Shown here: piece after piece, positions 9,474 through 50,455 of the stretch
How the letters are laid out: each line of letters starts with the position of its first letter
Numbering within the stretch: the first letter of the stretch is position 1
NCBI GenBank assembly: GCA_044892505.1
Contig: CM097884.1
Location: 27,838,001-27,902,000 of the forward strand
From: Schmidtea nova
Lineage: Eukaryota
Reading direction: 5' to 3'
Length of the DNA stretch: 64,000 nucleotides
The notes under the pieces: generated by a model
What the model was told of the DNA's origin: nothing
What the model saw: only the letters and a program-made list of their open reading frames with translations
Database searches by the model: none
Made by a program: the position numbers and the translations under genes

Positions 9474-9551
9474 TTTGGGTAGTTCAAAATTTTTGTTTGC
9501 AATCTAGCCTTTCTTGAAAAGGTCTAATTCCATCGCTTCTAATCAAGTGTC

Positions 9552-23612: not shown

Positions 23613-23919
23613 CAACTTCGTTTTATCGGAAAAATGTAAATGTAAAATCTGCAGAGAGGTTTAAAATGCTCGGGTCAATTAATTTAATAAAAAACAGAAA
23701 GGTTATAATTAAATTTAAATTATTGTATAAAAATTAAAATAACAACACGGCAGTGAACAAAAGTGAATTTAAAAATTAAAATGCATGCATGGATAATTTG
23801 TCGGGACGACAATTTTCGGAAACACGGGGGGAGTTAAATATTAAAAGATACAAAACGAAACATATTACTACCTTAAAACGATAAAAATAACAAAGTTAAA
23901 ACGATTATTTATTCAGTAA

Positions 23920-25243: not shown

Positions 25244-25298
25244 GAGGCCAATGAGCCATATTGAATGACCTAGCTAGGCGTTATGAGAGATTAAGTTA

Positions 25299-35300: not shown

Positions 35301-38300
35301 CTGAAAAGCGGATATTGGCAAATAAAAATGAAGGAAGAAGATAAAGAGAAAACTGCCTTTACCATCGGTAGAGATTTATATCAATTTCGAAAAATGCCAT
35401 TTGGATTAACGAACGCACCAGCATCATTTCAGAGATGCATGAATTTCGTCACCCACGGAATAAAGCAGTGCATGGTCTACATCGACGACTTATTGATTTA
35501 CTCTAGTACATTCGAACAACACATACAGGATATTCGAGATGTATTCGTTAGACTTAGACAATGGAAGTTAAAACTCAAGCCATCCAAGTGTGACTGGGCG
35601 AAAGAGAAAGTAACATTTTTAGGACATATAGTGTCAGCAAAAGGAAAAGAACCGGATCCTAGAAATATCGACAAGGTAAAAGAATGTCCAGTACCAAAAA
35701 CAATAACCCAGATACAAGAGTTTCTTGGGTTGTGTGGATACTACAGAAAGTTTATAAAAGATTACGCCGGAATAGCAAAACCTATACAGGAACTGGTAAA
35801 GAAAGATGTATCATTCATATGGGGAGATGAACAACAAACAGCCTTTGAAACGTTGAGAGATAAATTGATAACCGCACCCATATTGGTACACCCAGACTTT
35901 AAGAAGCCATTCCTACTTGCAACAGATGCAAGCGGATATGCAGCAGGAGCCGTATTAGGACAATACGACGACGAAGGAAAGGAACGCGTAATCGGATATT
36001 ATAGCCGGACATTCAAAAAGCATGAGAAAAATTACTCAGTAACAGAACGGGAAGCACTAGCAATTATATTAGCTATTAAACACTTTAAATATTTACTATG
36101 GGGTCACATCATCTGCATAACAACAGATCACCAACCGCTTGTATGGTTAGGACAGCACAAGGAAACATCCAGTAGATTAATGCGATGGGCAATGCAGTTA
36201 CAGGAGTACTCACCGGACATAAAATTTAAATCAGGAAGAGCGAATGCGAATGCAGATTGTATGTCAAGACTGACATTTCCAGAACTAACCGATCCTGATG
36301 TACAACGAATTTGTGTATTAATAGCGGAGGATTTAGATTTTAGTGAGTTAAAGAAAGATCAACAAGAAGACAAAGAATTAGGACAAATCATAGAGTTCCT
36401 AACATCTCGAAATATGGAAGTATTCAAGGATAATAAGGAACTAAAGGAACATATAGGAAAATATCAACATCGCTACATAATAAATAAAGGATGGTTGTTA
36501 ATACAAGACGGAGAAAAGAGATTGATGTGTTTACCGGAAAACAGAAGGAAAGAGATAATGATCCAGTACCATGATGGGAAATTAGGAGGTCATATGTCCG
36601 AGAAGAAGACAATAAACCGTATGAGACAAAAATATTATTGGCGAACAATGGAAGAAGATATAAAGGAATGGATTAAAAATTGTCTAACTTGTGCAACCAG
36701 AAAGGATAGTGGGAGGAAATGGAAAAACCCGCTACAACCAATGCCGATACCAGCAGAGCCAATGACAACTATAGCAATGGACGTAATAGGACCATTACCG
36801 GAAAGTCTAAACGGAAATATTTATATATTGGTAATAACGGATTATCTGACGAAATTCCCGGAAGCATTTGCCATGCAAGACCAAAAAGCAAAAACCGTAG
36901 CAAAAATTCTAGTGGAAGAAATATGTTGCAGATACGGAACTCCAAAACAAATACTCACAGACCAAGGAACTAATTTTATGAGTGAGTTATTAAACGAGGT
37001 GACAAACTATTTCAGAATAGCAAAATTGAGAACTTCACCATATCACCCGCAAACGAATGGACAAACGGAGCGATTCAACGGCACATTGATTAGAATGTTA
37101 TCAAACTACGTCAGCAAACACCAAACTGACTGGGACGAATACATAAAATTATGTTTAATGGCATACCGAATGTCGATACATGCAGCAACAAAACTAAGCC
37201 CATTTCAACTTATGTATGGAAGAGAATGCAACATGCCCATAGATTTAGAGTATCAGCCACCATTATCGCAATATATGGAAGATGACGACTACGTAACCAA
37301 ATTCAAAGAAAGAATGCAGGAGATATGGAAAACGGCAGAACTCAACATTAAATTTTATCAGGAAAGTTATAAGGATTTACACGACCAGAAGAAAAATGTT
37401 AAAGCGAACGACCTAAAACCAGGAGATTGGGTGATAATAGAAACTCCCGAAATAATACCAGGAACTGTTAAGAAACTCCAAAGACCTGGAAGAGGACCTT
37501 ATGAAATTATATACAAAAAGGACAACAATGTCAAAGTTAAGCTAATAAATCGACCGTTAATACGACCCATATATGTAAACACCTGCAGATGTAAGAAGGT
37601 GCCTAAAACGATAACTACAACACCAGAAAATCGAATAATAACTAGATCACAAACAGCCAGGATAAATATGCTCAGAGCTAACGCAACTGAAGACGACAAA
37701 GCAGAAATAAGGCAAAAGGAAATCAGAAATAAAGAAATCATATTGAAGGCGAGAGAGATAATGGGAAGATGGCATGTTAGAGACGAAGCAGGCATATCAA
37801 GGGATATTAGACATATAATTAGCCGTTACGCACAAGGATTACCAACCGAACCAATTATTTCTGAATTATTGGAAAAAATCCCTGAAATACTCTTATTGAA
37901 AGATGTAGGAGGACAACCAGCCTTACATAATGCGATAGAGTGTAAAAACATGGAAAGAGCAAAAGAATTCCTAAAAATCGCAAAAGAAACAAACCAAAAC
38001 TTGGACGTAGGGAATCGGGAACGAGAAACTCCATTAATGACAGCCGCAATCCACCAAGCAGATAAAGAAATGATAGATCTATTGATAAAAGCTCATTTCA
38101 GTTGGACAGAACGAGATAGAGAAGACAAAACAGTACTAAATCACGTAATATGGAGTTCTCACCAACCAATGCTGAAATACATAATAGCTAACTGCACTTG
38201 GGAGATAGACGAATTGGTTAAAAGAGACATTATCAAAGAGGCAATCAAAATTGGTAAATGCAACACGATCCGTAAGTTAATCAAATGGAAACGACCAGAA

Positions 38301-41300
38301 GAGGATACATGGGTCTTAGACATAAACGAAGTATACAGCGAAGGACAAAACGCGCTGTTAAGATATCTTCTGAAATTTACTTGTGATCAGAAGACATTAC
38401 TAACCTTATTAGACAGAGGAAACATAAACATCACAAAGAATGAAGAAGAATACAAATTCGATAAAGAGAAGGAAGCCTTATTCAATAAGATTAGGAAATG
38501 GTGTGCGAAACCACTTGATAAACTAATAACATACAAAGACATAAACAATTTTAACGAGAAATACCAGACGATAGTAAGCGAATATGAGGAATTAGTAAAA
38601 ATCTTAAACCATCCCGAAAAATGCAAACAGGTTTTAGAGAAAAGAGAAAGAGAAAGTAACAAGAAACTCACACCACTCTTCAAAGCTGAAGCACCATACC
38701 AAGCTAGACTAGATGCGATACAAGAAAAAGCAAAAGAATTGTTACCGGAATTCGAGAATAGTAAACATGCACTGGAAATACTCGGCGCATTAGTTGAAAA
38801 AGTACACGCATACGCAAAAGGAACATACAATGGTAACGACATAGTAATAATAAAAAAGGAGATGCCAGTAACATTCCTATTACCAAAAGACGGAATAATG
38901 CCCATACATAGAGCTCTACGAAATGGCAAAGATAGGAAAGTAATGGAAATTGCAAGAGTAATGCTAAATTGCGGAAGCAATATGAATATGATAGACGAGA
39001 AAGGAGATACACTTATGGTATTTGCAGCAAGGGCCAAAACGAAAACAAAGGTATTAGAAGAACTATACAAAGCAGGTGCAGGACTTACAGGAAAGACAGA
39101 TAAAGATAATTCGATATTGGATGTAGCATTATTAACACACAATTGGGAAATGGTCAATTTCATTAAAACCGTCCCAAATCAGGAAGAAATAGATCACCTA
39201 ACTGATACAGTCAAGAAACCCAGTGTACTAGCAATGATGAACAACGTCGAACTAACAGAATCAATACTTACGTGGATAAATCCTAATACTAACGAACCAG
39301 CATTCAGGATTAATAAGTTTACAGAACATAACCAAAACTGGTGTATAAGAAGTGCCTTAATAACGTATAAATGGCCAGAGATATTGAAGATGTTTATGGA
39401 AAGAAAAGATCTAAAAATCACAACCAGCCCGAAAGAGGAAAAATACACAGGCAAATGGAAAGAATTGATGAAGACATACATCAACAATTGGATCAAGGCC
39501 AAAAAGGAAATCTTGGAACATAAATCCACTAACAAAGTAATACCGGAGCAGGTAGAAACACAAGAATTTGAGGCAAGTAATCTAACGACATTGGCATATG
39601 CAAAATTGATAGAAGAAATCAATGTCGAGGACGACATTTTCGACGAGCCAGGGGGAGATGACAATACAGATAGTGACGACGGTAACAACTCAGAAAATTC
39701 AAACGATCACGAACCACCCGATAAAGAGGAAAACGAGAGAAAAGACAAGAAACGAGACAAGGAAGAAAAGAAAAGTGAAGACGAAAAACAAAGAGATGAA
39801 GATGGAGAACAAGGAAAAAACGACCAAGGAGATAAAAATGACACCCAAAGAACAAGTTATAAATCAACCATAAAACCATTCTTCAAACCAGAATTACTAT
39901 TATTAACAGTGATTTTAACGTTAATTAACCCAAGTCAAGGAATGACATGTGAAGAAAGGGCAATAATACAAATAAAAAACGCAAAAGGAATCGAACGAGT
40001 ATGTTGGTCAAAAAAGGACAAAATCACGGAACAAAATAGCCCGATGGATTGCAGAATCTCAAAACACGAGCAAGAGATCATAGAGATCAACGACCTAGAT
40101 CTAGATACCTGGTACAAAATATGCACCGTTAGGAAACAAAAGCATCCAAGATCACACAACACAATCGCATGTGCAAAATACCAAACACCTAAAGCAGCCA
40201 TGACAATACAACAGTCACCCAAAGGAGATTACATCATCGGAAAATGTGGAAGAACAGAGACACAGGGAACAGAAAACAAAAAACCCCAGGTAATAGATAA
40301 GCAAACAACACCAACCCTACGAATTACAATAAAGAGGCCCGAAGCAAGAGTTGCCACAAACGAAACCGAAAGAGTGTCTTACCAAATGGAAGTATTATGC
40401 TTAGCACTCATACTAATAATAATAAAACGATTAGAGGAAGGAATAGAAATTGAAACTATGACAATAACAGAAGTGGAAGATACACAGAACACTAACATAA
40501 AATGTTGGGCGAGGAATGACGAAGAAATCGGCGTAAACGAAATAAGGAAAAGTCGAAAGCCAACAACAAACAAAGTAATTAAAGTATCCGAAGTAAGAGC
40601 AGACAAGATGTACAAACTATGCCTACTTGAGAAAGAGAGGAACAAGAAAGGTACCACAAAATGTAAAACATTCCAACCTGGAGAGGTAATAAAGTTCCGA
40701 AGGAGAACGAGGAAGAGAAATAAACAAATCAAGCGGAAAGTAAACATAACATTAGAAGTAAAAGAGATAGAACCAAATGTGAAAGGAGTATGCTGGAGGA
40801 AGTACGAAAAGGAAGTAAATAAAAGAACGACACCACAATGTCAAACAAACACAGGAACAACGACGATTCAAATAAAAGGTTTAGAAAGTAAACAAACCTA
40901 CGAAATATGTTTGGTAAAGAAAAATGATCAGATAACGATAAACGACCTAGAATGCGGAATATACACCACTTCATCCGGAACAAGAACTAAAACGTTAACA
41001 CGGAAAAATAAAAGGAAACAACGAAACAAAGGAAAACCGAAGTACACCACTACCTTTAAAAACAATAAACAACCAATAAGCCAGGAAGTTACGACAAAAC
41101 CAGAGAGAAAGACATCAGCAACTCTAACATTATGGAAAATAGAGAATAAAACATTGGAGATATGTTGGATAATAGTCCAGAAAAATATAAGAAGACAATC
41201 AAGAGAGTGCAGAAAAACAAATAAAGAAATCAAGATCGAAAAACTACAATTTATTAGCGAGTACGTCGTATGCGCAATAGAAAAAATGGACAAACTAGGA

Positions 41301-42551
41301 AACCAACAAGAAAGATGCGAAACCTACTATACACCAGCGAACGCAACATCAAAAGAAATAACAAGGAAACTCGAATTCAGGGAACTAAGCCAAACGAATG
41401 AACAAATGGACGCAGAAAAAACAATAACCGACCCTCAAGCAAAATGGACACCTGAAGAAGTTATCAAAGAAGTCAAAAGAAAGCAAGAGGAACGAGAACA
41501 ATTAATGAGAAAACTAAAGGGACAATACGGAATAATGTTCAACCAAAGCGAATCTATACAAACAGACGAGAATAAAGAAATTAAAGAACTAATTGGCTTA
41601 GGAATATTAACAGCGACCATACCAGTAATAATCGCGTTATCAGCTATATGGATACGCAAGATAAACCCAAAGAAATCGGTAACCCAATGGACAAATAGAG
41701 ATAGTACAAGCCATGAAGTGGAAATGCTAGAAGAAAAAGCACGAGAAGAACCAAAAGAGAAAGAAGCAAAAAGCGGAAAACTAGGAATAAACAACAAAGA
41801 CAAGGAAACGAAAGAGACTAAAGGAGAAGAGAAAAAATATGAAAGGCGAACCAGAAGCCTACCGCAGAGTTCAAAATGGTTGGGTCTAACAATAATACTA
41901 ACATTAATCAATAGGGAAGAAGCAACAAACCTACAAGCAGGGATAAAAATAGTAAATGTCCAGGAGGTCGAGAAAATATGCTGGAATAAAGAGGATGAAC
42001 CAATTGGGAAAGATAACCCACTAAAATGTATAATCAGAAAATCCGACCAGGATATAGTACGAATAGAAGGGATGGACAGAGGAATCATGCATCGGATATG
42101 CATAATAGGAAAGGAAAAGAAGTCGGGGCTACCTAAGACAGTCGTATGTCAAAAATACGAAACGCCTAGACTCGAATGGTATAGAGTAAAACCAACAAAG
42201 AAAGAAATCAAAAACACCATAGATCAACCAGCAACTCAGATAAGAAACACAACGGATAAACCAGGAGAAGGAGAGAAAAGCACCAATAAAACGAGAGAAA
42301 GAATATCACCCCAACAAGAGTGCGTATGCATAGCATTAATACTAGCAATGTCCAAACGTATCGATAAAGGAATAATAATAGAACAAATGGCCATAACAAT
42401 AAGGAAAACAAGTAGCAACAAACTATGCTGGGGAACATACAACGAACCAAGGAAGGAATACCAAGTTCAGACAAGCGACGAATCACAAACAAACAAGGAA
42501 ATCGAAATACAAGAAATACAAATGAATGAAGAAGGAAGTATATGTATCTAA
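26316..42551 (+). CDS. gag-pol: Giant Gag-accessory-Env-Pol-accessory polyprotein (5,411 aa from TTG; first in-frame ATG at 26865)
   Basis: Single uninterrupted frame containing CCHC knuckles, DTG protease, YIDD RT, TDAS RNase H, and HHCC plus DDE integrase motifs. Confidence 0.95.
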   Translation: MRKGAKSVVVKPTEKKVGSNSNKKDKNSTTTKSTKKQKAGKDNPQGSKSRKIIRDKSITENDKLSIISNSSSNKENQAEPKENQASELESDETNNDNIEEIEHEIEQEGEIDETNNDNIEEVENEVEPEIEINASDNESIISDNEGIRETESDSSSSKTEDEHNNELETRGNESKITQDSGIEMGEPREEIKDKFSGEPFNGDASKLETFLKEFGIFVEVCKWKAETTVSRIQLYLKDSALDLYLEAKNGTNPPTSWTAIKDFFQQTFGINKVLSEAFIEFSKRKQKMNESNAVYASELKKLAKSVFKDGGPINEELMAAIFIGGLRRPDIRAQVGCQGCKTIDQALETANRFELHMIGSEGRIYLAMDTAQTEPEVNLNNHIPNSQQLNRPPPQRRNEGNKVQNFENQNNYNPQRQTKQCKTCGKLGHWQQECYQNLNCGKCGVKGHSESRCSTIICFNCGRPGHYSRNCGQKSNQRGNWQSNGNRPNYGNQANTVNRPDYGNQQNNNNNNQNKTTPKEIHLMQEVQRLTELINNTTRGNPQTNQQQISMMRKIESENERLNRESQARHAQEWARIQREDEQKQQERERQPLRINMLRATNQTDTREKETTLEMNSIDPNPADNESRKEIVQKDEEVEKEIKKEGETEINQEERRKIWKKGMMVIMPNDHMFRFQYNAKEKVEILFNKVNQMIPGVTKLPREAFLQIGDAPSVKLKLPDIWENVGVTETKRNVMRIKEIESEEIPPPIRHETRIRRIFEGKMIRRRLKEIDELGKKMEKVEVIEDKSEPTPEIDKNEPEPTENIQGETNQIAHINMLRNTTREFSDEEEDSDISSLAGDILNESEDENKEREVIKTSEPTQIKVDEIQKLLDNSLEVIYNEEFMDKKQYRKFMKALLQMNYKEWLQDREIDMLNRYVGKLIEEPLLNYTISIIINTSTPRIWIKTPFTDDIYRWVEDRLGSSYKNKFIYSQNRLVKRRTHLVETGIWPGEITLLSICDEKEEENLQEVAREANTCFERRIKPRLEYEKERVLRKNLNSLIEQIIPQVKKHRKELMRSEYEKLKRCIECIRDTSHTRWSQISHDKLIAKMGKTMFRQGKITDLKISVELPNEDTKEIEVVADCTIRELINVINETLVQREPEDEWEDDIIIQYNEHVLWDHDERRLYKIGIWDNHQTIHVSRMDDTPRETAKDEKKERERRKEVVRKLQQIVEIYRNWRIWPEWENVLEKLNLNRRIRTPVEKQWNEKGKCWEPKEGEYEEEYKRGIEDDCEPEIGRVCMVTRKATPIDLDGPETAAMWLEREKQKTEEFVEILKTNAHGKRKVIKGLADFFVVNGEDITCLRKVAKAIAEYKRVNEWCPEQLDHVIRKWRNQEFSQEIPQKVHLRIIYPNKDKEELWVGIAEKIRDIKKKLRYEPPFHLQHQGRSLDNSLEIGITPAQLDLMNTLTVEAIAGQPLKRKEENHKPHGSISTPSPIKSALTPGTSSRRSETTPRGNRERTPPQPYDVDEIFTDSDDMIEELTELTKEKDDNIFERIQELPTTIQVTNTGETEVEQEIIVEEVNDLTEDETRGAYAENVQLTQEMERWLEERANEPRDVTEETGRATRFVETGTGMDRRPRGRPKTDPATVVIRNKDEKRQDQWELCLKKLNKIAEIKEKETTPICQGEEWISKTIMEILAIIDPELRKYWRLTEISEKAKSLHSAIAPILPEFIKEKTKSNHLDWQGTTMLIKKLTEGAETDNKYVIAIAYTIYNLLTLSRGRPKPTALERHIKNTAKIIAREIEPYVINKGGWETFIKTNQKKTQAKNMKKKFEKILEELAKEQAGTGNVKSSMNLSSIIMMMLIWMISTDSATAFEVFDCDQMKLGEKYSLRGTEQCKDATPVELQKIKKEQWYHVYQEAELIKTMVNECKVQKTRFAFYCGRGHYSAIVMPGTEREPIVLQGEDCEALFKHGEVTTRDKIKIRGKPGMMMQQTYYVAGRITGGEGYCQGETYPIFGVPATNLVVMDTYIVELKSYEAFFEPTTGEMKTLSMCKIDRSMCQTGMSTLVYKPKVNECQLQLLQGAKFDEIQGKTFQEEDDDDKDRAKHLKEALENKRQLKPDHREKRIEMRATPTVLITTNQDVGMRFIKGKATLKCSTTVYETNYPGIYVSKQEVPNAKPKIDTMDIKLHLYVNNKMDFLFHRGQASLQKVYYDLINNDCILNREILKTKLAVAITNPDSAMPLLPLREGHFGRVVGEAMYVYICEKTHASLAATTQLKPGTCTNELEIDYKGKVRYVQPVTRIINPPGFEPNPFNCSNAYGPLYQKPDGKWVMFPGRSEVIAPREFELMQLSKDRQFSDVDVSNNGIYSPKDLEAARQNILFPARREALLSNIVTITGGTDYREGPNYELLLSPAHFKKATENMMKAMWGRFLIFGQMMAGILGVILIIQIVRVIITQMLACFDIYKREKKVNWKMVVGFLPFLAKTMVLHGHSKDIHRIKRLLKILAKMKGTDEEVGRKFKKIMNDEQARQQLKRERKGLWERMKGYKTQNDSSDDDDDDDDYKGGQVYKNQAPQYIEKNPADAWKCYAPPPTLYQEPLQGGKNSTMQMMPMTNVYPMIPEDYKMRRCRSVDPQGDTHTIAVMSSNTGPVLTTTIEINGREIEAMIDTGANISAIDIKWIPQEQRREIERTNVHVIACSKEVVEVAGRWWVKIRHLNTEIDTYVAVIPALSVPCIIGTDLMPALFNEIVIDLGTMRLKDRTGQICAIEAKVTSSKQMIIPARKEKICYVKIDPTIQGDMIFEPSKRFEKRKALPMARGLVNINDDGEIPINVVNFDEEDKIIYENERLGKLTPMMDIELPIEGAEKDKEPTWNIDSELLNEDQRKQLEKLLIEYKDIFAASDLDLGTCDVTLHTIPLTDETPIALRPYKLAEAQKAVAEAEVKKMLDAEVIEPSCSPWQFPVVMVKKKDGTQRFCIDYRRLNTVTKRDTYPLPDINEMLLTLQGAAYFTSLDLKSGYWQIKMKEEDKEKTAFTIGRDLYQFRKMPFGLTNAPASFQRCMNFVTHGIKQCMVYIDDLLIYSSTFEQHIQDIRDVFVRLRQWKLKLKPSKCDWAKEKVTFLGHIVSAKGKEPDPRNIDKVKECPVPKTITQIQEFLGLCGYYRKFIKDYAGIAKPIQELVKKDVSFIWGDEQQTAFETLRDKLITAPILVHPDFKKPFLLATDASGYAAGAVLGQYDDEGKERVIGYYSRTFKKHEKNYSVTEREALAIILAIKHFKYLLWGHIICITTDHQPLVWLGQHKETSSRLMRWAMQLQEYSPDIKFKSGRANANADCMSRLTFPELTDPDVQRICVLIAEDLDFSELKKDQQEDKELGQIIEFLTSRNMEVFKDNKELKEHIGKYQHRYIINKGWLLIQDGEKRLMCLPENRRKEIMIQYHDGKLGGHMSEKKTINRMRQKYYWRTMEEDIKEWIKNCLTCATRKDSGRKWKNPLQPMPIPAEPMTTIAMDVIGPLPESLNGNIYILVITDYLTKFPEAFAMQDQKAKTVAKILVEEICCRYGTPKQILTDQGTNFMSELLNEVTNYFRIAKLRTSPYHPQTNGQTERFNGTLIRMLSNYVSKHQTDWDEYIKLCLMAYRMSIHAATKLSPFQLMYGRECNMPIDLEYQPPLSQYMEDDDYVTKFKERMQEIWKTAELNIKFYQESYKDLHDQKKNVKANDLKPGDWVIIETPEIIPGTVKKLQRPGRGPYEIIYKKDNNVKVKLINRPLIRPIYVNTCRCKKVPKTITTTPENRIITRSQTARINMLRANATEDDKAEIRQKEIRNKEIILKAREIMGRWHVRDEAGISRDIRHIISRYAQGLPTEPIISELLEKIPEILLLKDVGGQPALHNAIECKNMERAKEFLKIAKETNQNLDVGNRERETPLMTAAIHQADKEMIDLLIKAHFSWTERDREDKTVLNHVIWSSHQPMLKYIIANCTWEIDELVKRDIIKEAIKIGKCNTIRKLIKWKRPEEDTWVLDINEVYSEGQNALLRYLLKFTCDQKTLLTLLDRGNINITKNEEEYKFDKEKEALFNKIRKWCAKPLDKLITYKDINNFNEKYQTIVSEYEELVKILNHPEKCKQVLEKRERESNKKLTPLFKAEAPYQARLDAIQEKAKELLPEFENSKHALEILGALVEKVHAYAKGTYNGNDIVIIKKEMPVTFLLPKDGIMPIHRALRNGKDRKVMEIARVMLNCGSNMNMIDEKGDTLMVFAARAKTKTKVLEELYKAGAGLTGKTDKDNSILDVALLTHNWEMVNFIKTVPNQEEIDHLTDTVKKPSVLAMMNNVELTESILTWINPNTNEPAFRINKFTEHNQNWCIRSALITYKWPEILKMFMERKDLKITTSPKEEKYTGKWKELMKTYINNWIKAKKEILEHKSTNKVIPEQVETQEFEASNLTTLAYAKLIEEINVEDDIFDEPGGDDNTDSDDGNNSENSNDHEPPDKEENERKDKKRDKEEKKSEDEKQRDEDGEQGKNDQGDKNDTQRTSYKSTIKPFFKPELLLLTVILTLINPSQGMTCEERAIIQIKNAKGIERVCWSKKDKITEQNSPMDCRISKHEQEIIEINDLDLDTWYKICTVRKQKHPRSHNTIACAKYQTPKAAMTIQQSPKGDYIIGKCGRTETQGTENKKPQVIDKQTTPTLRITIKRPEARVATNETERVSYQMEVLCLALILIIIKRLEEGIEIETMTITEVEDTQNTNIKCWARNDEEIGVNEIRKSRKPTTNKVIKVSEVRADKMYKLCLLEKERNKKGTTKCKTFQPGEVIKFRRRTRKRNKQIKRKVNITLEVKEIEPNVKGVCWRKYEKEVNKRTTPQCQTNTGTTTIQIKGLESKQTYEICLVKKNDQITINDLECGIYTTSSGTRTKTLTRKNKRKQRNKGKPKYTTTFKNNKQPISQEVTTKPERKTSATLTLWKIENKTLEICWIIVQKNIRRQSRECRKTNKEIKIEKLQFISEYVVCAIEKMDKLGNQQERCETYYTPANATSKEITRKLEFRELSQTNEQMDAEKTITDPQAKWTPEEVIKEVKRKQEEREQLMRKLKGQYGIMFNQSESIQTDENKEIKELIGLGILTATIPVIIALSAIWIRKINPKKSVTQWTNRDSTSHEVEMLEEKAREEPKEKEAKSGKLGINNKDKETKETKGEEKKYERRTRSLPQSSKWLGLTIILTLINREEATNLQAGIKIVNVQEVEKICWNKEDEPIGKDNPLKCIIRKSDQDIVRIEGMDRGIMHRICIIGKEKKSGLPKTVVCQKYETPRLEWYRVKPTKKEIKNTIDQPATQIRNTTDKPGEGEKSTNKTRERISPQQECVCIALILAMSKRIDKGIIIEQMAITIRKTSSNKLCWGTYNEPRKEYQVQTSDESQTNKEIEIQEIQMNEEGSICI
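26865..27728 (+). other. gag: Gag capsid-like domain and nucleocapsid with three CCHC zinc knuckles
   Basis: PFNGDASKLETFL capsid-type start. Knuckles CKTCGKLGHWQQEC, CGKCGVKGHSESRC and CFNCGRPGHYSRNC at 27576-27728. Confidence 0.9.
29091..30672 (+). other. Three ubiquitin-like segments, each preceded by a helical domain
   Basis: Best copy is LKISVELPNEDTKEIEVVADCTIRELINVI...IIQYNEHVL...GIWDNHQTIHV (about 29610-29860), which follows the ubiquitin hydrophobic pattern. Weaker copies at about 29091-29310 and 30457-30672. Confidence 0.45.
31240..31710 (+). other. Bcl-2-like helical domain in the polyprotein
   Basis: BH2-like IEPYVINKGGWETFI (GGW at 31686-31694; compare Bcl-2 LHTWIQDNGGWDAFV), preceded by a BH1-position hydrophobic helix (YVIAIAYTIYNLL). 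BH1 NWGR is not conserved. Confidence 0.6.
31815..33650 (+). other. env: Envelope-like glycoprotein (chuvirus G-like, class III fusion type) with internal signal peptide and TM anchor
   Basis: Signal-like MNLSSIIMMMLIWMISTDSATA then FEVFDC at 31881. Cys framework DC..YSL..C / ECK..FYCG..H / CILNREILKTKLAVA..PD..GHFGRVVGEAMYVYIC / CTNEL...YVQPVTRII / C...PLYQ..GKW. TM from 33555. Confidence 0.75.
34200..34560 (+). other. Retropepsin aspartic protease
   Basis: AMIDTGANISAI (catalytic D at 34263) and CIIGTDLM. Confidence 0.95.
35000..35650 (+). other. Reverse transcriptase
   Basis: RFCIDYRRLN, LDLKSGYWQI, MPFGLTNAPASFQR, YIDD at 35478-35489; catalytic motif intact. Confidence 0.97.
35900..36270 (+). 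other. RNase H
   Basis: LATDASGYAAGAVL, YSVTEREALAI, TDHQPL, NANADCMSR. Confidence 0.95.
36540..37660 (+). other. Integrase (HHCC, DDE core, GPY/F)
   Basis: YHDGKLGGH..CLTC, IAMDVIGPL, TDQGTNF, NGQTERFN, GRGPY. Confidence 0.95.
37890..39165 (+). other. Two ankyrin-repeat clusters (about 37890-38190 and 38880-39165)
   Basis: DVGGQPALHNAI, NRERETPLMTAAI, DREDKTVLNHVI; KDGIMPIHRAL, DEKGDTLMVFAA, DKDNSILDVAL. Confidence 0.85.
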
Positions 42552-43331
42552 GAGAGAGGAATCCAAGAGGGAATAGAGCATTGCAAGACATTCCAAAAAG
42601 GAGAGATACTGAAATTCGATGAAGAAGAATTAACAAAGACAGAAAGAACTCTGACATTAACAGGACTCGATCAGACAGTTAAAGGAATATGTTGGACAAA
42701 GCATAACCCAGAAGGGGAAGAAGACAACCTAACCCACTGTAAAGAAATAAAGAATAAAGAAAAAGTCGAATTAAAGAAAATGGAAGTAAATAGGACATAC
42801 GCGATATGTACCTTCACCAGAAAAGGTTCAGAAAAACCAGAATGCGGATTATATCAGATCTCAGAGAAACTACAACAACAGATCGAACCAGGAAACGTGG
42901 AAAACCGAACAAAAGAAAATAACTTCAAACAACTACTAAACCGCCATTGGTCTACACAAGAAGTAATGAACAAAGTTAAGAGTCAAATACAGAAAGAGAA
43001 GAAGCCAGAGGCTCAAACCCAAAATGAGATTAAAGCGAATCAGAATAAAATCAAAGCAACAAACCGTGGAAAAACAGTAATAGGATTAATCAGCATAGGA
43101 ATATTAATAGCATATGGGATAATGACGACAAGCATGATAATATATTGGAGATACAAAAAGAGAAACAAAGCGACAGCCATACAATGGCCAGATATCAAAA
43201 TCATGAAACTAGGAATAGAAATACCAGAGGAGATACAGAAAGAATTTCAAAGAAGAACGAAAGGTAAAGAATTCTGGAAACAAATAGAAGATGAAGAACG
43301 ATACGAAGAAAAGACGATAATGATGGTATAG
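39891..43331 (+). other. Seven Cys-containing FN3-like repeats with signal-like and TM segments, in two duplicated cassettes
   Basis: C-W motifs at 40002, 40503, 40791, 41163, 41979, 42426 and 42690, each followed by I.I..L...T.Y.IC-type strands. TM helices near 41589-41660 and 43077-43150. Confidence 0.6.
42552..43331 (+). CDS. In-frame continuation of the polyprotein after the TAA at 42549-42551 (ORF-finder start 42780)
   Basis: Same frame as 26316, no further stops. ERGIQEGIEHCKTFQKGEILKF..VKGICWTK aligns with the upstream repeat KKGTTKCKTFQPGEVIKF..VKGVCWRK. Confidence 0.8.
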   Translation, partial: ERGIQEGIEHCKTFQKGEILKFDEEELTKTERTLTLTGLDQTVKGICWTKHNPEGEEDNLTHCKEIKNKEKVELKKMEVNRTYAICTFTRKGSEKPECGLYQISEKLQQQIEPGNVENRTKENNFKQLLNRHWSTQEVMNKVKSQIQKEKKPEAQTQNEIKANQNKIKATNRGKTVIGLISIGILIAYGIMTTSMIIYWRYKKRNKATAIQWPDIKIMKLGIEIPEEIQKEFQRRTKGKEFWKQIEDEERYEEKTIMMV

Positions 43332-43461
43332 GGGCGGATTATGACTGTAAATAATAGTGTAAATAACAAAGCATTACCGTAATAGTATGGGTATCGATAT
43401 TATAAAAAAAAAATTGTAAAAAGCTAGAAAAACAAAGTAAATGATGTATATAATTTAGAAA

Positions 43462-43818
43462 ATGACCGAACAGGACGAAACAACTGAAATAACTATGGCT
43501 ATGAGATGGAAGGCACAATGTGATTTATTAGTACGAACAGTCAACTCATTACAGAACCAATTAGCGGAAAGACAAATGTTATTATCAGAAAGTTATAACA
43601 ATTGTTTCGAACAATTACACAGAATAGAGGAACAACAAAGAGCGATAACTGAACTCACCAGAGAAAATCAAACGATAAGCAACACCAATCAAAGACAAGC
43701 AATAGAAATAAACCATTTAACACGAGGAGAAAGAGAAGGATCCGAAGAAGGATGGATGAGTTGGGTAATAAATAGATTAAACAACGAAGCGGAACCAGAT
43801 TCAACGAATGAGCCATAG
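43462..43818 (+). CDS. Accessory coiled-coil protein, 118 aa
   Basis: ATG-started ORF with heptad pattern, same A-rich codon style as the element, bounded by the shared spacer motifs. Confidence 0.65.
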   Translation: MTEQDETTEITMAMRWKAQCDLLVRTVNSLQNQLAERQMLLSESYNNCFEQLHRIEEQQRAITELTRENQTISNTNQRQAIEINHLTRGEREGSEEGWMSWVINRLNNEAEPDSTNEP

Positions 43819-43911
43819 ATAAATAAAGCGGAAAACTGTAAATATGTAAAAATAAAAACAAGAAAAATCCAAAAATAAATGACAAGTCGAATGTATATAT
43901 TATTGTAGAAA

Positions 43912-45288
43912 ATGGACAGAGAAGAACGAATAATCGAAATTTTGAGATTAGAAAACAGAAAATGGAGCAAGAGGCTCACATGCGGAAAATGTAACAATTT
44001 ATTACGAGAACCCAAACAAACGATATGTGGATGTAGAATATGTACAAAATGTATACAAGAATTAGATGCAACAGGAATAACAACATGCCCAGAATGTAAG
44101 GAAGGAAGAATAGTGTTGGACGAAATCAGAACGGACAAAGCAACCCAAAGAGAAATTATGAGCACCACAACGGAGTGCGTAAATACACCTTGTACATGGC
44201 AAGGACAAATAAGTAATCTAGAAAATCATATGGAAAAGTGCGAGGAGAAAGGAGCCGAATGCGAGAAGTGCCAACAAACAATAATTCTAAAGAAGAGAGA
44301 ACAACACAAGGACGAATGTAAAGAAGAAGAAATCGCATGCGAGTATTGTGAAACTCGAGAAACAAGGGGAAAAATCGAAGAAGAACATTTGAATATAACA
44401 GAGGAGAAAGTATGCGGACAATATGTAAGTAACTGTCCAAACAATTGCGAAATAACAGAAGAAGTAAAGTTACATGAACATTGGAAAGTATGTACCGAAA
44501 GACCAAGAGAATGTCCATATAACAAACAGGGATGCAAAGAAAAGCGGACGCGGCAATCAATGAAACAACACCTAGAAGAAGCAGCACTAACGCATGTAGA
44601 AATGACAAACGAAACGACAAAAGAAACGGAACAGACAATCCAGAAATTAGAAAAAGAAGTAGAATCACATAAGATAATGATGAGTTTACTACTAGAAACA
44701 AGAGAGCAGTTTGAACTAACTCGCGAAAGAATGGAAAAGAAAATAATAGCCATAGAAGAATTAGGAAAAGGAATGAAAATACAATATAATCAGTTAATAC
44801 GAGAAATTGACGAAAGAAGGGACTTACCAATTGCACCTTACCTATGGAAAGTAACAGATTTCAGAGACAAACTAGCAGAAGCCAGAAATATGACGAAAAC
44901 AGCAGTAATAAGCCCACCATTTTATTTATGGAAAAACGGGGTTAAAATAAGATTGAAAGTATACCCAAATGGAGACGGAAGAGGACAAGGAACACACGTG
45001 TCAATATTTTTCTCGCTATGTAAAGGAGAATACGATGACCTAATAGAATGGCCCTTGAAAGTAGGAGTCATTATAAGAATCAAAAGTATGGGAAAACCAG
45101 TAGAAAAGTTCTTTGAAACAGACAAACATACGAGTACGAGCGAAAAACCAACGACAGAATGCGGACTAGCAGCAGGAGAACCAATGTTTATAAGGAAAGA
45201 AAACCTATGGGAGCGACTATATGCAGACACGCTATACATAGAGATGGAGAGGCATGAGAAAACAGACAGAAAAGGATGGTTGGCGTAA
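43912..45288 (+). CDS. Full-length TRAF-family protein (RING, TRAF zinc fingers, coiled coil, MATH/TRAF-C), 458 aa, intronless
   Basis: CGKCNNLLREPKQTICGCRICTKC RING; CTWQG..LENHMEKC fingers; YLWKVTDF..SPPFY..YPNGDGRGQGTHVSIFF..GEYDDLIEWP MATH signature. Confidence 0.93.
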   Translation: MDREERIIEILRLENRKWSKRLTCGKCNNLLREPKQTICGCRICTKCIQELDATGITTCPECKEGRIVLDEIRTDKATQREIMSTTTECVNTPCTWQGQISNLENHMEKCEEKGAECEKCQQTIILKKREQHKDECKEEEIACEYCETRETRGKIEEEHLNITEEKVCGQYVSNCPNNCEITEEVKLHEHWKVCTERPRECPYNKQGCKEKRTRQSMKQHLEEAALTHVEMTNETTKETEQTIQKLEKEVESHKIMMSLLLETREQFELTRERMEKKIIAIEELGKGMKIQYNQLIREIDERRDLPIAPYLWKVTDFRDKLAEARNMTKTAVISPPFYLWKNGVKIRLKVYPNGDGRGQGTHVSIFFSLCKGEYDDLIEWPLKVGVIIRIKSMGKPVEKFFETDKHTSTSEKPTTECGLAAGEPMFIRKENLWERLYADTLYIEMERHEKTDRKGWLA

Positions 45289-45401
45289 TGAAGGAAGTAA
45301 CCATGTAAATAAAATGTATAGAAACAATATGAATTAACAAATAATCAAAAACAATAAAAATAAAAAATGATTAAATATTCTTTTTATCTGTAATTATAGA
45401 A

Positions 45402-46463
45402 ATGGGAAATATAGAAGTAACCTTACAAGAAGTAACAGTACATCAAGACGAAATGATCAGAAATCACATGGAGCGGATTGGGATATGGATTCATGCCTAT
45501 TATCGAAAACAAGAGGAATTGGAAAGACAAACCGAAGCACTAAGAGAAGCCGAGAAAACGAATCAAAGAAGTAGAGAAAAAATAGAAGAAGTCTACAAAC
45601 TGCTAAGACAACAAAACGAATACTACAAAGAGATGATGAAAGAGCGACGAGAGGATAGGGATAGACAACAAATAAAAACAGACCATAAGATTCAGTCAAT
45701 CACAGAACAAGCAAGATATTGGAAGAAAGAGGCAAAAGACTCTTACAAGGAAGCAAGGGAGATAATAGAACGAACAGCGTACAGCGATGATTGGAAACTG
45801 TTTAAAGAGATCGATGAATTAAAAGAGGAATTAGGACAAAAGATCAGTCAAGAAACGTCAAATAAAGTATGGAGTAAGAAAAGACAACAATTTATCAGAG
45901 AACAAGCCAAGAAAATAAAAGAATTAACTTATCAAGTACGAAGAATGGGAGAAGATTTAGCCAATCAAGAACAATTAAAAGGTATGCTGACCGGAATGTG
46001 GAATCACAAGGAAGAAAACATGAAAAGAGACATAAATGGATATCAAGGAGTGATCACCCAGAAGAAAATAGAATTAAAAAGAACTAAAGAAAGACTGGAA
46101 GAAACGAGGCAGAGTTATGAAGAGAACATAACAAATTTGACAAAAGAAAACGAAGAACTGAGAAAGAAGTTGGCAGAAAAACCAACACCAATAAAAGAAA
46201 CAAGTATCACAGCAGCAGTGACCGAAATGATGGAGAAGGAAGAGAGAGAGAAAAAATTGGCAGAACTAGAAAAACAAATTGAAACCCTAACAGAACAAGC
46301 GAACTATCTGGAATACTTATTAGATGAAGAGATCCAGATATCCCACACATACCGAGAAGAAGTCGAAATGTGGAGGAGCACGGTAATATGGATGCCACTC
46401 CCCATAAATCAGGTGGAACCTCAAGACGAAGGTTTTCACGAACCCAACGAAACCCTTGTATAA
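45402..46463 (+). CDS. Accessory long coiled-coil protein, 353 aa
   Basis: Long ATG-started ORF, Glu/Lys/Arg-rich heptads throughout; no recognised domain. Confidence 0.75.
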   Translation: MGNIEVTLQEVTVHQDEMIRNHMERIGIWIHAYYRKQEELERQTEALREAEKTNQRSREKIEEVYKLLRQQNEYYKEMMKERREDRDRQQIKTDHKIQSITEQARYWKKEAKDSYKEAREIIERTAYSDDWKLFKEIDELKEELGQKISQETSNKVWSKKRQQFIREQAKKIKELTYQVRRMGEDLANQEQLKGMLTGMWNHKEENMKRDINGYQGVITQKKIELKRTKERLEETRQSYEENITNLTKENEELRKKLAEKPTPIKETSITAAVTEMMEKEEREKKLAELEKQIETLTEQANYLEYLLDEEIQISHTYREEVEMWRSTVIWMPLPINQVEPQDEGFHEPNETLV

Positions 46464-46538
46464 ATGTGCAGAAACCCAGTGTAAATAAATTATGTAAAAT
46501 AAAAAGTGTCAAGCTGTATTGACCAATGTATAAAAGAG

Positions 46539-47108
46539 ATGAGAAAGCTCGCAATAGCAACACTCCTATGGTTAACAACCATTACCCTACAGAGAGAAGA
46601 TTTACAACTAACCGAAACCCAATTACGAGTGCTACCCGACAAAATCTACCAGAAAGTAGACAGACTAATCGAAGAAGTAATTAGAGAAATCAACGAATTC
46701 CGACAGAAATACCCCCACAATCAAGATCGTCAAATCCAACAAATCTTCGATAACCAACAACTGAAACTAGAAGAAACCCGAAAAATCCTGAAAGAAGGTA
46801 GAGAACCCATAAAAAGCCTATCCCAAGCTGAAATAGAATATCAAGAGAAATGGATCATAGCAATCATCATAATCCTAGCAGTCAGCACAACTATCATCGC
46901 AATCACAATCCTGCTTGCCTCGTATAGAATAAAAATCCTAAAACAAAAGCAGAAAATCTACAACCAAACCTCCAGACGAGATAACCGAGCTCAAAGACGA
47001 ATAAGGAGCCATCTCAACCACATTCAAACCCACTACGAGCTACAAATAATCAACGAGAGGACCCGAACTCAACCCCAAGCGAGCCAGACGATCGAACAAA
47101 TTGTATAA
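46539..47108 (+). CDS. Accessory predicted type I membrane protein (ATG at 46539; ORF-finder GTG start at 46506)
   Basis: Signal-like MRKLAIATLLWLTTITL, helical ectodomain, TM WIIAIIIILAVSTTIIAITILLASY, basic tail. Confidence 0.7.
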   Translation: MRKLAIATLLWLTTITLQREDLQLTETQLRVLPDKIYQKVDRLIEEVIREINEFRQKYPHNQDRQIQQIFDNQQLKLEETRKILKEGREPIKSLSQAEIEYQEKWIIAIIIILAVSTTIIAITILLASYRIKILKQKQKIYNQTSRRDNRAQRRIRSHLNHIQTHYELQIINERTRTQPQASQTIEQIV

Positions 47109-47280
47109 ACATTATGATAACTTATCGAACTATTGTGACAAATCATTACATTTTGACTATTTAATGACAAACTTTATGATATGTATAAATTCGATCACCT
47201 TATGTGATTTTTCTTTGCATGTATAACTTTATAAAACTTTTTATGGATGATGAATATAAGTATTTATGTATAATTAATTG

Positions 47281-47310
47281 CGGGACGCAATTTTAGGGGT
47301 CCCCGGGTGA
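47281..47310 (+). other. Polypurine-tract position, non-canonical G-rich sequence
   Basis: cgggacgcaattttaggggtccccgggtga lies directly before the TG of the 3' LTR. Confidence 0.5.
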
Positions 47311-48730
47311 TGTTGGGCCCGCCAAATCACCTAAAAAACACAACAAAACGAACAAAAGCACGAAACAATAAAGAAATAATAAAAATAAAAATAGCAAGAA
47401 AAACAAATTAAAAATAACAATAAAACGACAAATAATAATTGACAAATTTTCAGTAAGAGGAAATTTTGAAAATAAACCGGTAAACAACCGCAAAGGGGGG
47501 CCTGAAATCGGAAAAAATAGAATTAAATAAAATAATAGTGCAAATAATTAATTAATTACTTGGAAAATCAGGACCACCCAGCGAGAAACCGGAAAAGGAA
47601 ACAAAATAATGTTTAGATTAGATTAAAATAATAAAAATACTTTGATGGACGGCCTGATCCTGATTGGTCAATCCAACCAGACGGATCAGTATAAATACCG
47701 ATCCAAAAATCACAGACTTAGACTTTTACTTTTCACTCAAGATCAAGACTAAACTTTGATTTGAGTAAATTTTTTGAAAAAACCGAATTTCATACAAGGA
47801 ACCACATATTCAAGTACGGAAGTAATTTTTTTTATTTTTTATCTTATATGATGTACCCATGATTTTTAGTTTAATTAAAATCTTATATGTAAACGTTATC
47901 TTATATTTTTTTTTTGATATTTTAATGCATATAGTTATACTTCCTATGCTGCTCACGCGGCGAGGGAGTCCGAGTCGTCGTTGTGGGGCCTCACGGTCTC
48001 ACATGGCGGTTCAACCTTTTTATTGTTTTGGTTTTCATTTTTTGGTAGTTGAAATAATTAAACTAAATCATTTAACTAGATATTTATCAGCGAGATTAGA
48101 GAATTTTAATGCTTATTTAGTCGAGTAAAATTTTCAGTCACGAAATATCGATAATGCGAATACGTCCAGACAGTTTTCTGGCGATAAGTAAAAAATCATC
48201 ATTTGGTTGTACAGGGGACGTAGCACAGCGGGCGGTAGAGAAGGTCTAAGGGGATACCAGGAGGGGGTAAAGTACCCGATAGGTGTCAGGTACCCGAGAC
48301 AAATGGGTTGACACGCTGAGGTTAAATTTGAGGACGAGAGAGCAGGTATAACATGACAAGTTCTATAAAATTTTCCAAGTAAATCGATCAAACTGATGAA
48401 TTTCAATTAAGGTCAAGGTACGGGATATAGCAACTGCATGACAGAGATTAGTAAGACTGAAAATCATAAATTCTAAAAATACTTTAAATTCCAATCTAAT
48501 AAAACCAAAAATCTGTAATTCTAAAAATACTTTTATGCCGATCGCTGTACATAGCGCGGTAGCTCAAACTAATCTTATCCTGATCGTCGTACATGGCGCA
48601 GGGAAACAAATATCTTCTCCGACCGTGGTATATCGCGGTGATGGTTTAAAAATGAGATGGTATTAACTAACAGGATTGAGATTAAATATAATTTACATTC
48701 AACTCTTTATTGAATAAAATAAAATGACAG

Positions 48731-49207
48731 ATGCTGACATCATTGAACGAAAGATTAATGCGGATTCGGAACTCAGGAAAGGAGGACAGGGCGAATGGAT
48801 GGGCAAACCAGCTCAAGGAGTTGCCCCAGCCAATTCTGCGGACCATTAACGCCCAAGCGTACAAGTGGCGACAAGGGTTTGGTCGAAAGTGCCCGTTTTC
48901 CATCTGGGACGGAGGAAGCGATGAAATACTCTATCGAGGAGGACCGAACTGGCCTATTTCCCAAAGGCCGTACTCAAATAAGTTTGGCCGATTAATCGTA
49001 CTGATCAAGGACACAGATGGACGGACAAGCCGTGTAATTTATTGGGGGCATATCCCTCGTCGAGAGCTATGCCAACTGGGTCTGTACGAGTTCTTACCAC
49101 GAAAACCGTTCGGCAAGGAGTGCCAGAAAGGACAACCCTCGTTCTCTTGGGCTCGTCTTCGTCAGAAACCGATTAACAGCGAATTGCATAGTTTGTTTCG
49201 GAGATGA
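48731..49207 (+). CDS. ORF-A copy in 3' LTR
   Basis: Same translation as 21868-22344. Confidence 0.8.
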   Translation: MLTSLNERLMRIRNSGKEDRANGWANQLKELPQPILRTINAQAYKWRQGFGRKCPFSIWDGGSDEILYRGGPNWPISQRPYSNKFGRLIVLIKDTDGRTSRVIYWGHIPRRELCQLGLYEFLPRKPFGKECQKGQPSFSWARLRQKPINSELHSLFRR

Positions 49208-49385
49208 AAACTGATTAACAAATGTTGAAATTGTGTTAAAATATTAGAGTTCATTAGTGAATTTTTTGTTTTTGAGTTTTGTTTCGCATTTTAATAGTTC
49301 ATATTCGTAACCTAATAATCCTATGATCAGATTTTAATTTTCATATAATTAAATCATAGAGTAAATATCCTAAATAAATTATAGA

Positions 49386-49982
49386 ATGAACCCCGATTTG
49401 ATGCAGAGAGAATTTGAAAAGATGTGGCGGATTCGGAGAGCCCAGGACAAGGAATTGGGTCTCCTCAAGGCACAATTGATCAAAGCCGAGGCACAGATTG
49501 CATACTTGCGCAAAAGCTGGTTTGCTCCGGCCAGAATGAAAGAGCAAATCAGTAAAACCGAGCGCGCCCAACAGACTGCAGCCGATTACCAAATGGAATG
49601 GGAGGCTACAAAGATAGAGCTCCGAAAATGCCTCCATTCCGTGACTGCCTCATATATTGAGAAGGAGCTCAGAGACCAAATCCGTCCGGTTACGTACCAA
49701 GCGTGGACATCAGAAAAGAAGACGGTAAATTCCATTGGCACGGATGTCGCCGATCTAATCGAAAGTCGGAATGAGACAGCTCCTGCAGCAAATTCAACCA
49801 CCTCATCGGCGAATACGCACCAAAAACGCAAGCGCATTGGGCAGAAACGGCGAAGACAGAGAAAATTATTTGCCCAGCAATTACAAAGCCAAGTCGATGG
49901 TCTACATCAGATGACCGAGGAGGCATTATTGGCGGAGATTTTTCCTCCGGCGGGAGTTTTTACCGAACTCATTAAAAATTAA
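49386..49982 (+). CDS. ORF-B copy in 3' LTR
   Basis: Same as 22523-23119 except one L/F change. Confidence 0.85.
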   Translation: MNPDLMQREFEKMWRIRRAQDKELGLLKAQLIKAEAQIAYLRKSWFAPARMKEQISKTERAQQTAADYQMEWEATKIELRKCLHSVTASYIEKELRDQIRPVTYQAWTSEKKTVNSIGTDVADLIESRNETAPAANSTTSSANTHQKRKRIGQKRRRQRKLFAQQLQSQVDGLHQMTEEALLAEIFPPAGVFTELIKN

Positions 49983-50455
49983 ATAAATTGTTGTATTGGC
50001 TTAAGAATTTCATCGTTCGTTTAAATCGATTTAATTAACTTTACCAATGATTAGATAAAGATAGAACAAAAGTATAAATTCATTTTACAAAATATCGAAT
50101 AGAGATAATTAAATAATTAAGCGAGCATTCGTTGAAATACTTCTCGCAGACTGAGCAATGATAAAAATAAATTTTCTGAAAGATTCACGCGGAATACATA
50201 AGTAGATGATTAAAGCATAAGTCCTTCTAACGGCAGCGATGAACCCGTAAACATAAATGGGGAGTAGTACTAGCGATAGTGCTCACCTGCCCATCATTGT
50301 TTAACCACCCTGCGCATCACCAACTTGATTATATAGGGAAAAAATCAAGGGCGCTTGAGTGTAGAATTGCAATTTTGTGCATGATCATGGATGAGGGAAT
50401 CCCTAGTCATTGTTAGAACATTTTTCATCTAACCCCTCCATGAACCCAGCAAAAG

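Follow-up and report, generated by a model that had tools for sequence, protein, structure and literature searches.

Burro/GYPSM1 elements of dugesiid planarians are about 30 kb long and carry long LTRs, an ORF1 of around 5,000 amino acids, three CCHC knuckles and a mononegavirus-like fusion protein encoded in frame between gag and pol, together with a dUTPase-like stretch, ankyrin repeats, tandem repeats, accessory ORFs and a TRAF-C cargo (PMC6431247). The element described here shows the same features, except that for a dUTPase-like stretch it gave weak matches at most. BCL2-like, Ubi2/SUMO-like and BIR domains were additionally reported for Burro, with an excess of apoptosis and ubiquitination domains, and according to the same source the TRAF-C cargo has been in print since 2007 (PMC6431247). 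As MATH_TRAF_C was already reported in Burro/GYPSM1, a TRAF cargo as such is not new. In the Burro elements of S. mediterranea, MATH_TRAF_C was located inside ORF1, and in those of D. tigrina an accessory ORF upstream contains it (PMC6431247), whereas the element of our window carries a complete RING-fingers-coil-MATH gene downstream of pol, an ORF1 without MATH and no BIR that we could find. This full-length TRAF gene downstream of pol is the variant relative to the known TRAF cargo; part of the difference may be one of annotation, since the available text of PMC6431247 is silent on whether the D. tigrina ORF is full length. In a literature search, no paper was found to describe an LTR element with a full-length TRAF; Grohme 2018 may already do so.

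Three further systems invite comparison. GAG-ENV-POL errantiviruses with a gB-type envelope, known from Nematoda, Bryozoa and Platyhelminthes, share the position of the envelope between gag and pol (PMC13524379); the main text of that paper makes no mention of TRAF, Burro or planarian in the part available, and TRAF is likewise not mentioned in the available text of PMC11410931. Viral TRAFs, namely the megalocytivirus protein ORF111L (PMC3352826) and TRAF-like proteins of giant viruses, are also host-derived TRAFs in a parasite genome, plausibly directed at death signaling. They differ in belonging to large DNA viruses, in which TRAF-like proteins are common, and in representing independent captures (11-28% identity). 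ORF111L is pro-apoptotic via TRADD and caspase 8 (PMC3352826), while the window's TRAF resides in a reverse-transcribing element and is known from its sequence. Finally, cellular TRAF2/3/5 proteins, including planarian Smed-TRAF-2A/B, have the same domain order, five fingers and, as far as modeled, trimer geometry, with the MATH domain of our protein closest to TRAF3/5/2. Compared with cellular TRAFs other than the named planarian ones, the window's protein shows 24-35% identity, an eight-Cys RING, a shorter coiled coil, an altered proline pocket and a mobile element as its carrier.

Results and Discussion

The Carrier Is a Young, Burro-Like Ty3/Gypsy Element

The window, i.e., the complete stretch of 64,000 nt of DNA that was analyzed, contains one complete element with the following parts.

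20448..50451, + strand: whole Burro-like Ty3/Gypsy LTR element, 30,004 bp
20444..20447 and 50452-50455, no strand: left and right copies of a 4-bp target-site duplication
20448..23588, + strand: 5' LTR of 3,141 bp with TG...CA ends, containing two ORFs as well as CCAAT and TATA boxes (near 20800-20835)
23595..23612, + strand: primer-binding-site-like 18-mer immediately inside the 5' LTR
23920..24381, + strand: accessory ORF upstream of the polyprotein, 153 aa, with an IAP-type RING at its C-terminus (XIAP and cIAP as best PDB matches, E ~1e-9)
24826..25763, + strand: two tandem arrays within the 5' untranslated region, one of 29-bp and one of 32-bp units
26283..42551, + strand: 5,422-codon open frame (polyprotein), first ATG at 26865
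42552..43331, + strand: 259-codon frame right after the polyprotein stop, one transmembrane segment
43462..43818, + strand: accessory ORF, 118 aa, coiled-coil-like, with its own acceptor-like site and polyA-type signals
45402..46463, + strand: accessory ORF, 353 aa, coiled-coil-like, with its own acceptor-like site and polyA-type signals
46539..47108, + strand: accessory ORF, 189 aa, one transmembrane segment
47311..50451, + strand: 3' LTR, 3 mismatches to the 5' LTR

Since the two LTRs of 3,141 bp differ at just three positions and are accompanied by intact TG/CA ends and a 4-bp duplication, the insertion is very young. The 18-mer inside the 5' LTR may resemble a tRNA-Pro primer-binding site. 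From its first ATG the polyprotein comprises 5,228 aa and contains, in this order, gag, a possible BCL2-like domain, the fusion glycoprotein, protease, a weak dUTPase-like stretch, reverse transcriptase, RNase H, integrase, ankyrin repeats and an FN3-like/transmembrane tail. Gag was recognized with an E-value of 5e-5, the three CCHC knuckles with 3e-10, the Monjiviricetes-type fusion glycoprotein (PF24664), located in the same frame upstream of the protease, with 3e-71, and the ankyrin repeats (Ank_2) after the integrase with 5e-12. The order PR-RT-RH-IN, the TG...CA ends of the LTRs and the target-site duplication are those of Ty3/Gypsy elements (Metaviridae). No named Burro or planarian sequence was present among the pol and TRAF matches. 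Judged by the architecture of the element, the host is probably a triclad flatworm. The nearest pol relatives found (48-53% identity) also possess an envelope between gag and pol. Polyproteins of this gag-env-pol type (P0050, P0055, P0056, P0058, P0060, P0063, P0066, P0079 and similar, pol 48-53% identical) contain the same fusion-protein family or ankyrin repeats, several of them with a second protease-like domain after the integrase.

Some parts of the polyprotein were less clear. The BCL2-like stretch lies in the expected place before env and matched Bcl-xL with an E-value of 1.8, with Bcl-xL rows appearing just at E 1-2.4 among unrelated ones; its structure model (pLDDT 48, no significant fold match) did not confirm the domain. 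Between protease and reverse transcriptase, 4 of 6 weak PDB rows (E 0.5-1) belonged to the dUTPase superfamily. The FN3-like tail showed a weak likeness together with a transmembrane stretch, and the 259-codon frame behind it is homologous to its repeats (E 2e-14). The in-frame stop between these two frames (42549-43331) may reflect stop read-through or a break in the window's copy. Ubiquitin-like repeats in the N-terminal region, suspected by eye, found no support from Pfam, PDB or self-BLAST and were dropped. Pfam scans of the polyprotein and the accessory ORFs revealed no BIR domain; the upstream ORF at 23920-24381, with its IAP-type RING in the absence of a BIR, is a candidate natural partner for the TRAF protein. 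The two LTR-internal ORFs, at 21862-22344 and 22523-23119 in the 5' LTR and present again in the 3' LTR, have no Pfam match and do not show the A-rich codon style of the element; the second one has homologues in related LTRs, e.g., at 14737-15378.

Outside the element, a second, broken Ty3/Gypsy element with pieces of reverse transcriptase, RNase H and integrase was observed at 7368-10431 on the minus strand. A short minus-strand frame at 59772-60104 resembles by eye a fragment of a family B DNA polymerase, with no Pfam match. Neither a host gene nor a tRNA gene was seen in the 64,000 nt of the window, and a plasmid search, of little informative value here, was negative.

A Complete TRAF Gene Is Located Between the LTRs

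Downstream of pol, flanked by four further frames, an ATG-to-stop frame of 458 codons runs through positions 43912-45288 with no interruption, between both LTRs of one single element.

43912..45288, + strand: full-length TRAF ORF, 458 aa, no introns (domain, PDB and model evidence)
43981..44097, + strand: RING domain with eight Cys ligands (C41 in place of the His of vertebrate TRAFs)
44176..44595, + strand: five TRAF-type zinc fingers, C89-H228
44584..44811, + strand: coiled coil (TRAF-N), helix 225-300 in the model
44839..45255, + strand: MATH/TRAF-C domain, receptor-binding surface partly retained, proline pocket changed

Using Pfam, the MATH domain (MATH_2, residues 310-445, E 7e-21) was found above the cut-off, zf-TRAF at residues 166-220 with an E-value of 7e-8 and the RING at residues 24-62 weakly (E 0.007). 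A sequence search against PDB yielded 40 matches, nearly all of them TRAFs (TRAF3/5/2/1/4/6), with best E-values of 2e-23 for MATH (TRAF3) and 5e-14 for RING plus fingers; TRAF3, TRAF5 and TRAF2 lead, and the N-terminal part matched RING-finger constructs of TRAF6, TRAF5 and TRAF2. The AlphaFold2 model, calculated from a 19-row alignment, reached a mean pLDDT of 88.6 and shows a 76-residue helix (225-300) followed by a beta-sandwich (310-448); a Foldseek search with this model placed TRAF domains on top (E 4e-16). The ORF is a member of the TRAF family of the TRAF2/3/5 type with RING, five fingers, coiled coil and MATH domain in order. The first-pass annotation had described it as a complete, intronless TRAF gene with all canonical domains carried by a retrotransposon, and the intact frame between paired LTRs and the agreement of Pfam, PDB and Foldseek confirm this. 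No second TRAF or MATH copy was detected in the window or in ORF1 by a profile of the TRAF clade described below; its other matches in the window were 15 residues at 55353-55427 (E 0.009) and a coiled-coil match.

All 28 zinc ligands are present in the ORF. The RING ligands are C24, C27, C39, C41, C44, C47, C59 and C62, and the five fingers lie between C89 and H228. In a 17-row alignment 27 of the 28 ligand positions were invariant or at least 90% conserved, C41 being the exception.

Codon Composition Points to Long Residence Under Selection

The fourfold-degenerate sites of the TRAF ORF (n=135) consist of A at a fraction of 0.74 and T at 0.04. This skew exceeds that of pol (0.64/0.09) and env (59/5%), and the codon usage (RSCU) correlates with that of pol at r=0.88. 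In the DNA on either side, A and T are almost balanced between the strands (A 0.33/T 0.31 and 0.37/0.32), and the unrelated, decayed Ty3 element in the window shows 49/26% A/T at fourfold sites. The closest full-length relative of the TRAF protein among the best 150 of 6,017 matches shares 35% identity with it, and the chance of a stop-free frame of 458 codons at the composition of the gene is ~3e-15. The synonymous turnover and the identity of 35%, set against an open frame with all zinc ligands in place, point to long purifying selection inside the element. These data support, as far as sequence can tell, that the TRAF gene is a long-resident gene of the element under selection. That the A-rich codon style indicates long residence had been proposed beforehand; the values for fourfold sites (74% A versus 64% in pol), the 28 retained ligands and a clade of four A-biased TRAFs described below speak for it.

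The opposite view would see a neutral passenger, acquired recently, in which decay has not begun. The copy in the window is indeed young, and for this reason intactness alone says little. Synonymous sites that have fully arrived at the bias of the element, a nearest relative at no closer than 35% identity, a frame kept open against such odds and a full set of zinc ligands are hard to reconcile with a recent arrival, and we consider this explanation highly improbable.

The RING Is Intact and the Receptor-Binding Surface Partly Altered

The first-pass annotation had noted a Cys in place of the usual His in the RING. The exchange is present, at position 41, and is not peculiar to the copy in the window. 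When a RING pattern was applied to the best 150 of 6,017 library matches, the fourth ligand was His in 77, Cys in 21 and another residue in 14, with no pattern recognized in 38; 17 of the Cys-RING rows belong to the 21-row clade of the window's protein (see below) and 4 fall outside. With Cys common to 21 of these 150 matches, the change is a lineage trait, and an element-specific or inactivating change was ruled out. The complete set of zinc ligands is kept by it. In the alignment, Lys26 and Asn28 of the RING occupy the sites of an Ile and a Leu in TRAF6, which we take to contact the E2 enzyme. A Lys is present after the last Cys pair of the RING.

The receptor-binding residues of TRAF2, as given in PMC6125299, were mapped onto the protein via an alignment with TRAF3. 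Y351, F366 and F401 are retained, K349 for Arg and I388 for Leu are conservative swaps, and the serine triad reads T407-S408-T409. Of the three hot spots for Px(Q/E)E, the second and third are conservatively kept, while the hydrophobic (proline) pocket of hot spot 1 has lost 2 of its 5 residues (S410 for Phe and E423 for Cys). T403, S410 and G418 differ at sites that are conserved in 26-27 of 31 other rows. With such a pocket, the protein may well bind partners that differ from the canonical Px(Q/E)E receptors.

A trimer of coiled coil and MATH domain was modeled with a score of 0.73 (best of three controls 0.01), with at least 88% contact agreement between runs and a pLDDT of at least 82. Among microbial proteins, 21 of 30 with structures solved as pairs attained the mark for this score and none of 23 solved alone did so; the corresponding counts for eukaryotic proteins were 17 of 29 and 0 of 30. 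As TRAF trimers have already been solved, passing this mark demonstrates no more than likeness and may reflect those known structures. In this sense the coiled coil and the trimer interface appear retained, with a likeness to solved TRAF trimers.

The altered pocket and the three departures at T403, S410 and G418 would also fit a decay of binding or the role of a decoy, which would enter trimers of host TRAFs or block receptors and adaptors without signaling and thereby dampen innate antiviral or pro-death signals. The modeled retention of coiled coil and trimer interface agrees with such a role, as do Lys26 and Asn28 at the presumed E2 sites. However, Lys26 is shared by 7 of 18 clade members and is thus no element-specific loss, and a decoy needs coiled coil and MATH alone, while in the window's protein the RING and all five fingers have been fully preserved through a complete turnover of codons. 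Overall, we regard a decoy as an unlikely explanation, if one deserving attention.

Relatives of the Gene and Its Origin

A full-library protein search with the window's TRAF yielded 6,017 proteins at E <=0.001, the best 150 of which were listed. The tree was calculated from the window's protein, 28 of the 150 listed matches and 5 named TRAFs; 77 rows with a His RING, 36 without RING pattern and 9 odd or multidomain ones were left out. The window's protein was found in a clade of 21 rows (support 100/99), 18 of them with a Cys RING, and four more Cys rows lay outside; with the His-RING matches outside the tree, this is a limited test of monophyly. Within the clade it groups with P0136, P0153 and P0164 (97/94), and these four were the only tree rows flagged for composition. 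Their ratio of residues with A-rich codons to residues with T-rich codons ranged from 3.2 to 4.0, against at most 2.1 in 29 of 30 others, the remaining one being P0184 with 2.65. The same ratio amounted to 1.7 for pol and env, which makes it informative within the TRAF family alone and no general marker of elements. Nine residues are common to the four A-biased TRAFs and present in at most one of the 30 other rows. P0153 and P0164 gave no MATH match.

Compositional attraction was considered as a cause of the four-member clade and rejected: after four-class recoding the clade was held at 98/98, with the charged class still somewhat enriched, while the 21-row clade fell to 94/76. Judged by composition and tree position, P0136, P0153 and P0164 are probably copies from sibling elements, and the expectation that sibling elements carry the gene is thereby probably borne out. 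No TRAF or MATH match within the polyprotein was found among 120 pol relatives, a set of polyproteins in which separate ORFs are invisible.

The simplest reading of the tree would be one capture from a host TRAF, followed by inheritance in several element families. The ancestor would have been a TRAF2/3-type host gene from an invertebrate clade in which Cys had already replaced His in the RING. P0184, located in a different subclade with its intermediate ratio, could mark a second, independent capture. It had further been concluded that the gene, being intronless, was captured from mRNA. This does not follow: any spliceable intron is lost when a cargo passes through the RNA of an LTR element, whatever the route of acquisition, so the absence of introns cannot tell RNA-level from DNA-level capture. 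On general grounds, RNA-level recombination during reverse transcription is the likeliest route.

At the level of representatives of 50% identity, 4 of the 21 clade rows have an element-borne look, with P0184 as an intermediate fifth. Elements thus explain at most a part of the TRAF expansion, and most of the sequence diversity in the sampled clade looks host-type. By copy number the share of elements could exceed 4/21, because Burro elements occur in thousands of copies (PMC6431247). The suggestion of the first-pass annotation that elements carry part of the TRAF expansion in planarians is plausible. Planarians possess a greatly expanded set of TRAF/MATH transcripts with high expression (PMC6109357, PMC7586133), and this together with the nesting of the element clade among host-like TRAFs could be taken as a hint that the cargo serves the host by providing an extra TRAF dose in stem or immune cells, with the element as a vehicle, or that its copies seeded host paralogues. 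The same nesting fits capture in the direction from host to element. Moreover, the element inserted very recently and its mobility genes are intact, the TRAF gene belongs to its most A-shifted parts and no sign of domestication was seen, so that we judge a host-serving cargo very unlikely.

Putative Signals for Expression of the Gene

Two candidate signals border the TRAF ORF.

43891..43908, + strand: putative splice acceptor, a T-rich tract and a TAG separated by three bases from the TRAF ATG
45304..45313, + strand: UGUA overlapping AAUAAA, 16-25 nt past the TRAF stop, putative polyadenylation signal (also fits a Pumilio-type consensus)

Nine ORFs with a length of 100 aa or more start with ATG, and 5 of them (TRAF included) have a T-rich YAG no farther than 6 nt from this ATG, versus 10 of 514 other ATGs. 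The figure is generous, because the T threshold was chosen with the sites already in view and most of the ATGs in the null set lie in coding DNA. In the five spacers between the downstream ORFs UGUA occurred 18 times versus 3.6 in shuffles (0 of 10,000 reached 18), and AAUAAA was present in three of the five. Of 20 matches to the Pumilio-type motif UGUAHAUA in the window, 7 lie on the plus strand in four spacers (43332-46538) of 411 nt in total; on the plus strand of the 16-kb polyprotein frame there were none. The spacer matches may be upstream elements of polyadenylation or Pumilio sites.

To the left of the element, several diverged LTRs from related families lie in a cluster (near 2760-3204 on the minus strand, 4783, 11758 and 13089; compare 20800-21180). 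CCAAT and TATA boxes are conserved in 5 of 5 related LTRs, that of the element included. In 4 of these 5 the TATA box is followed by a short segment that is T-rich, resembles an intron and has a conserved TAG at its end, along with a GC-rich, exon-like block; a spliced leader is therefore suggested. We propose that the TRAF mRNA would start in the LTR with a leader that is spliced to the acceptor before the ATG and would end at the polyadenylation signal after the stop, and that the ORFs of the element might obtain separate mRNAs through alternative splicing combined with alternative polyadenylation. Flatworm spliced leaders end in AUG, and with distances from acceptor to ATG of 1, 3, 3, 3 and 2 nt, not every ORF would be in frame with such a leader, which leans weakly toward cis-splicing over spliced-leader trans-splicing. 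The latter process does occur in planarians (PMC10899757).

Proposed Function of the Element-Borne TRAF

In planarians, host TRAFs are required for cell survival (PMC7586133) and tied to innate immunity (PMC7958881). We favor, with a probability of roughly 55%, a pro-survival adaptor which acts with the IAP-type RING protein and other cargo and tilts host death and immune signaling. The gene would be an accessory gene with a long residence in a Burro-like Ty3/Gypsy element that carries an envelope. Its product would trimerize through coiled coil and MATH domain, as cellular TRAFs do, and would chiefly be an adaptor or scaffold instead of a strong stand-alone E3. Together with the IAP-type RING protein, the ankyrin repeats and the possible BCL2-like domain it might push TRAF/TAK1/caspase signaling toward survival of the carrier cell, in analogy to viral TRAF, IAP and Bcl-2 homologues, which tune the same pathway. 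A viral TRAF acting on host death signaling exists (PMC3352826). As this one characterized viral TRAF favors apoptosis and not survival (PMC3352826), the pro-survival direction is not to be assumed.

Alternatively, the protein could serve the cycle of the element itself as an E3 or scaffold, i.e., in assembly, budding or the removal of restriction factors, and not modulate signaling. An intact RING with a Lys after the last Cys pair, the design resembling an enveloped particle with membrane proteins and a second RING ORF in the same element would suit such a replication factor. LMP1-like TRAF-binding motifs in the membrane proteins of the element were sought and were not in excess, with 9 in the polyprotein against 8.1 expected and 0 in seven other frames. 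In addition, related gag-env-pol polyproteins (120 pol relatives) are without a TRAF domain. This makes a role in replication rather improbable in our opinion.

A wider version of the favored adaptor reading, which we offer tentatively and with more doubt than confidence, is that of an endogenous enveloped virus which directs a multi-gene kit (TRAF, IAP-type RING, BCL2-like, ankyrin and FN3-like membrane proteins) at one host pathway and expresses it from one LTR promoter with alternative splicing and polyadenylation. The TRAF lineage would then be old, present in several families and responsible for a measurable share of the planarian TRAF/MATH transcript expansion. If this were true, some "host" TRAF expression signals would be element transcripts.

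Significance for the Planarian TRAF Expansion

The TRAF papers examined treat the planarian expansion as a host matter in their available text. TRAF/MATH and element expansions are both reported by PMC6109357, each separately; the accessible text of PMC7586133 does not mention transposition, "retro" or Burro, and PMC8807557, which calls the significance of the TRAF expansion unresolved, does not mention transposition in the part at hand. The literature search returned no paper that ties the expansion to elements. A complete, selected, element-borne TRAF with a compositional signature allows a direct sorting of TRAF/MATH transcripts into those of the host and those of elements. The share of elements in the expansion thereby becomes directly countable, and from the clade representatives the effect looks partial. 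The intact young copy described here also provides material for the standing proposal that Burro-type elements meddle with apoptosis.
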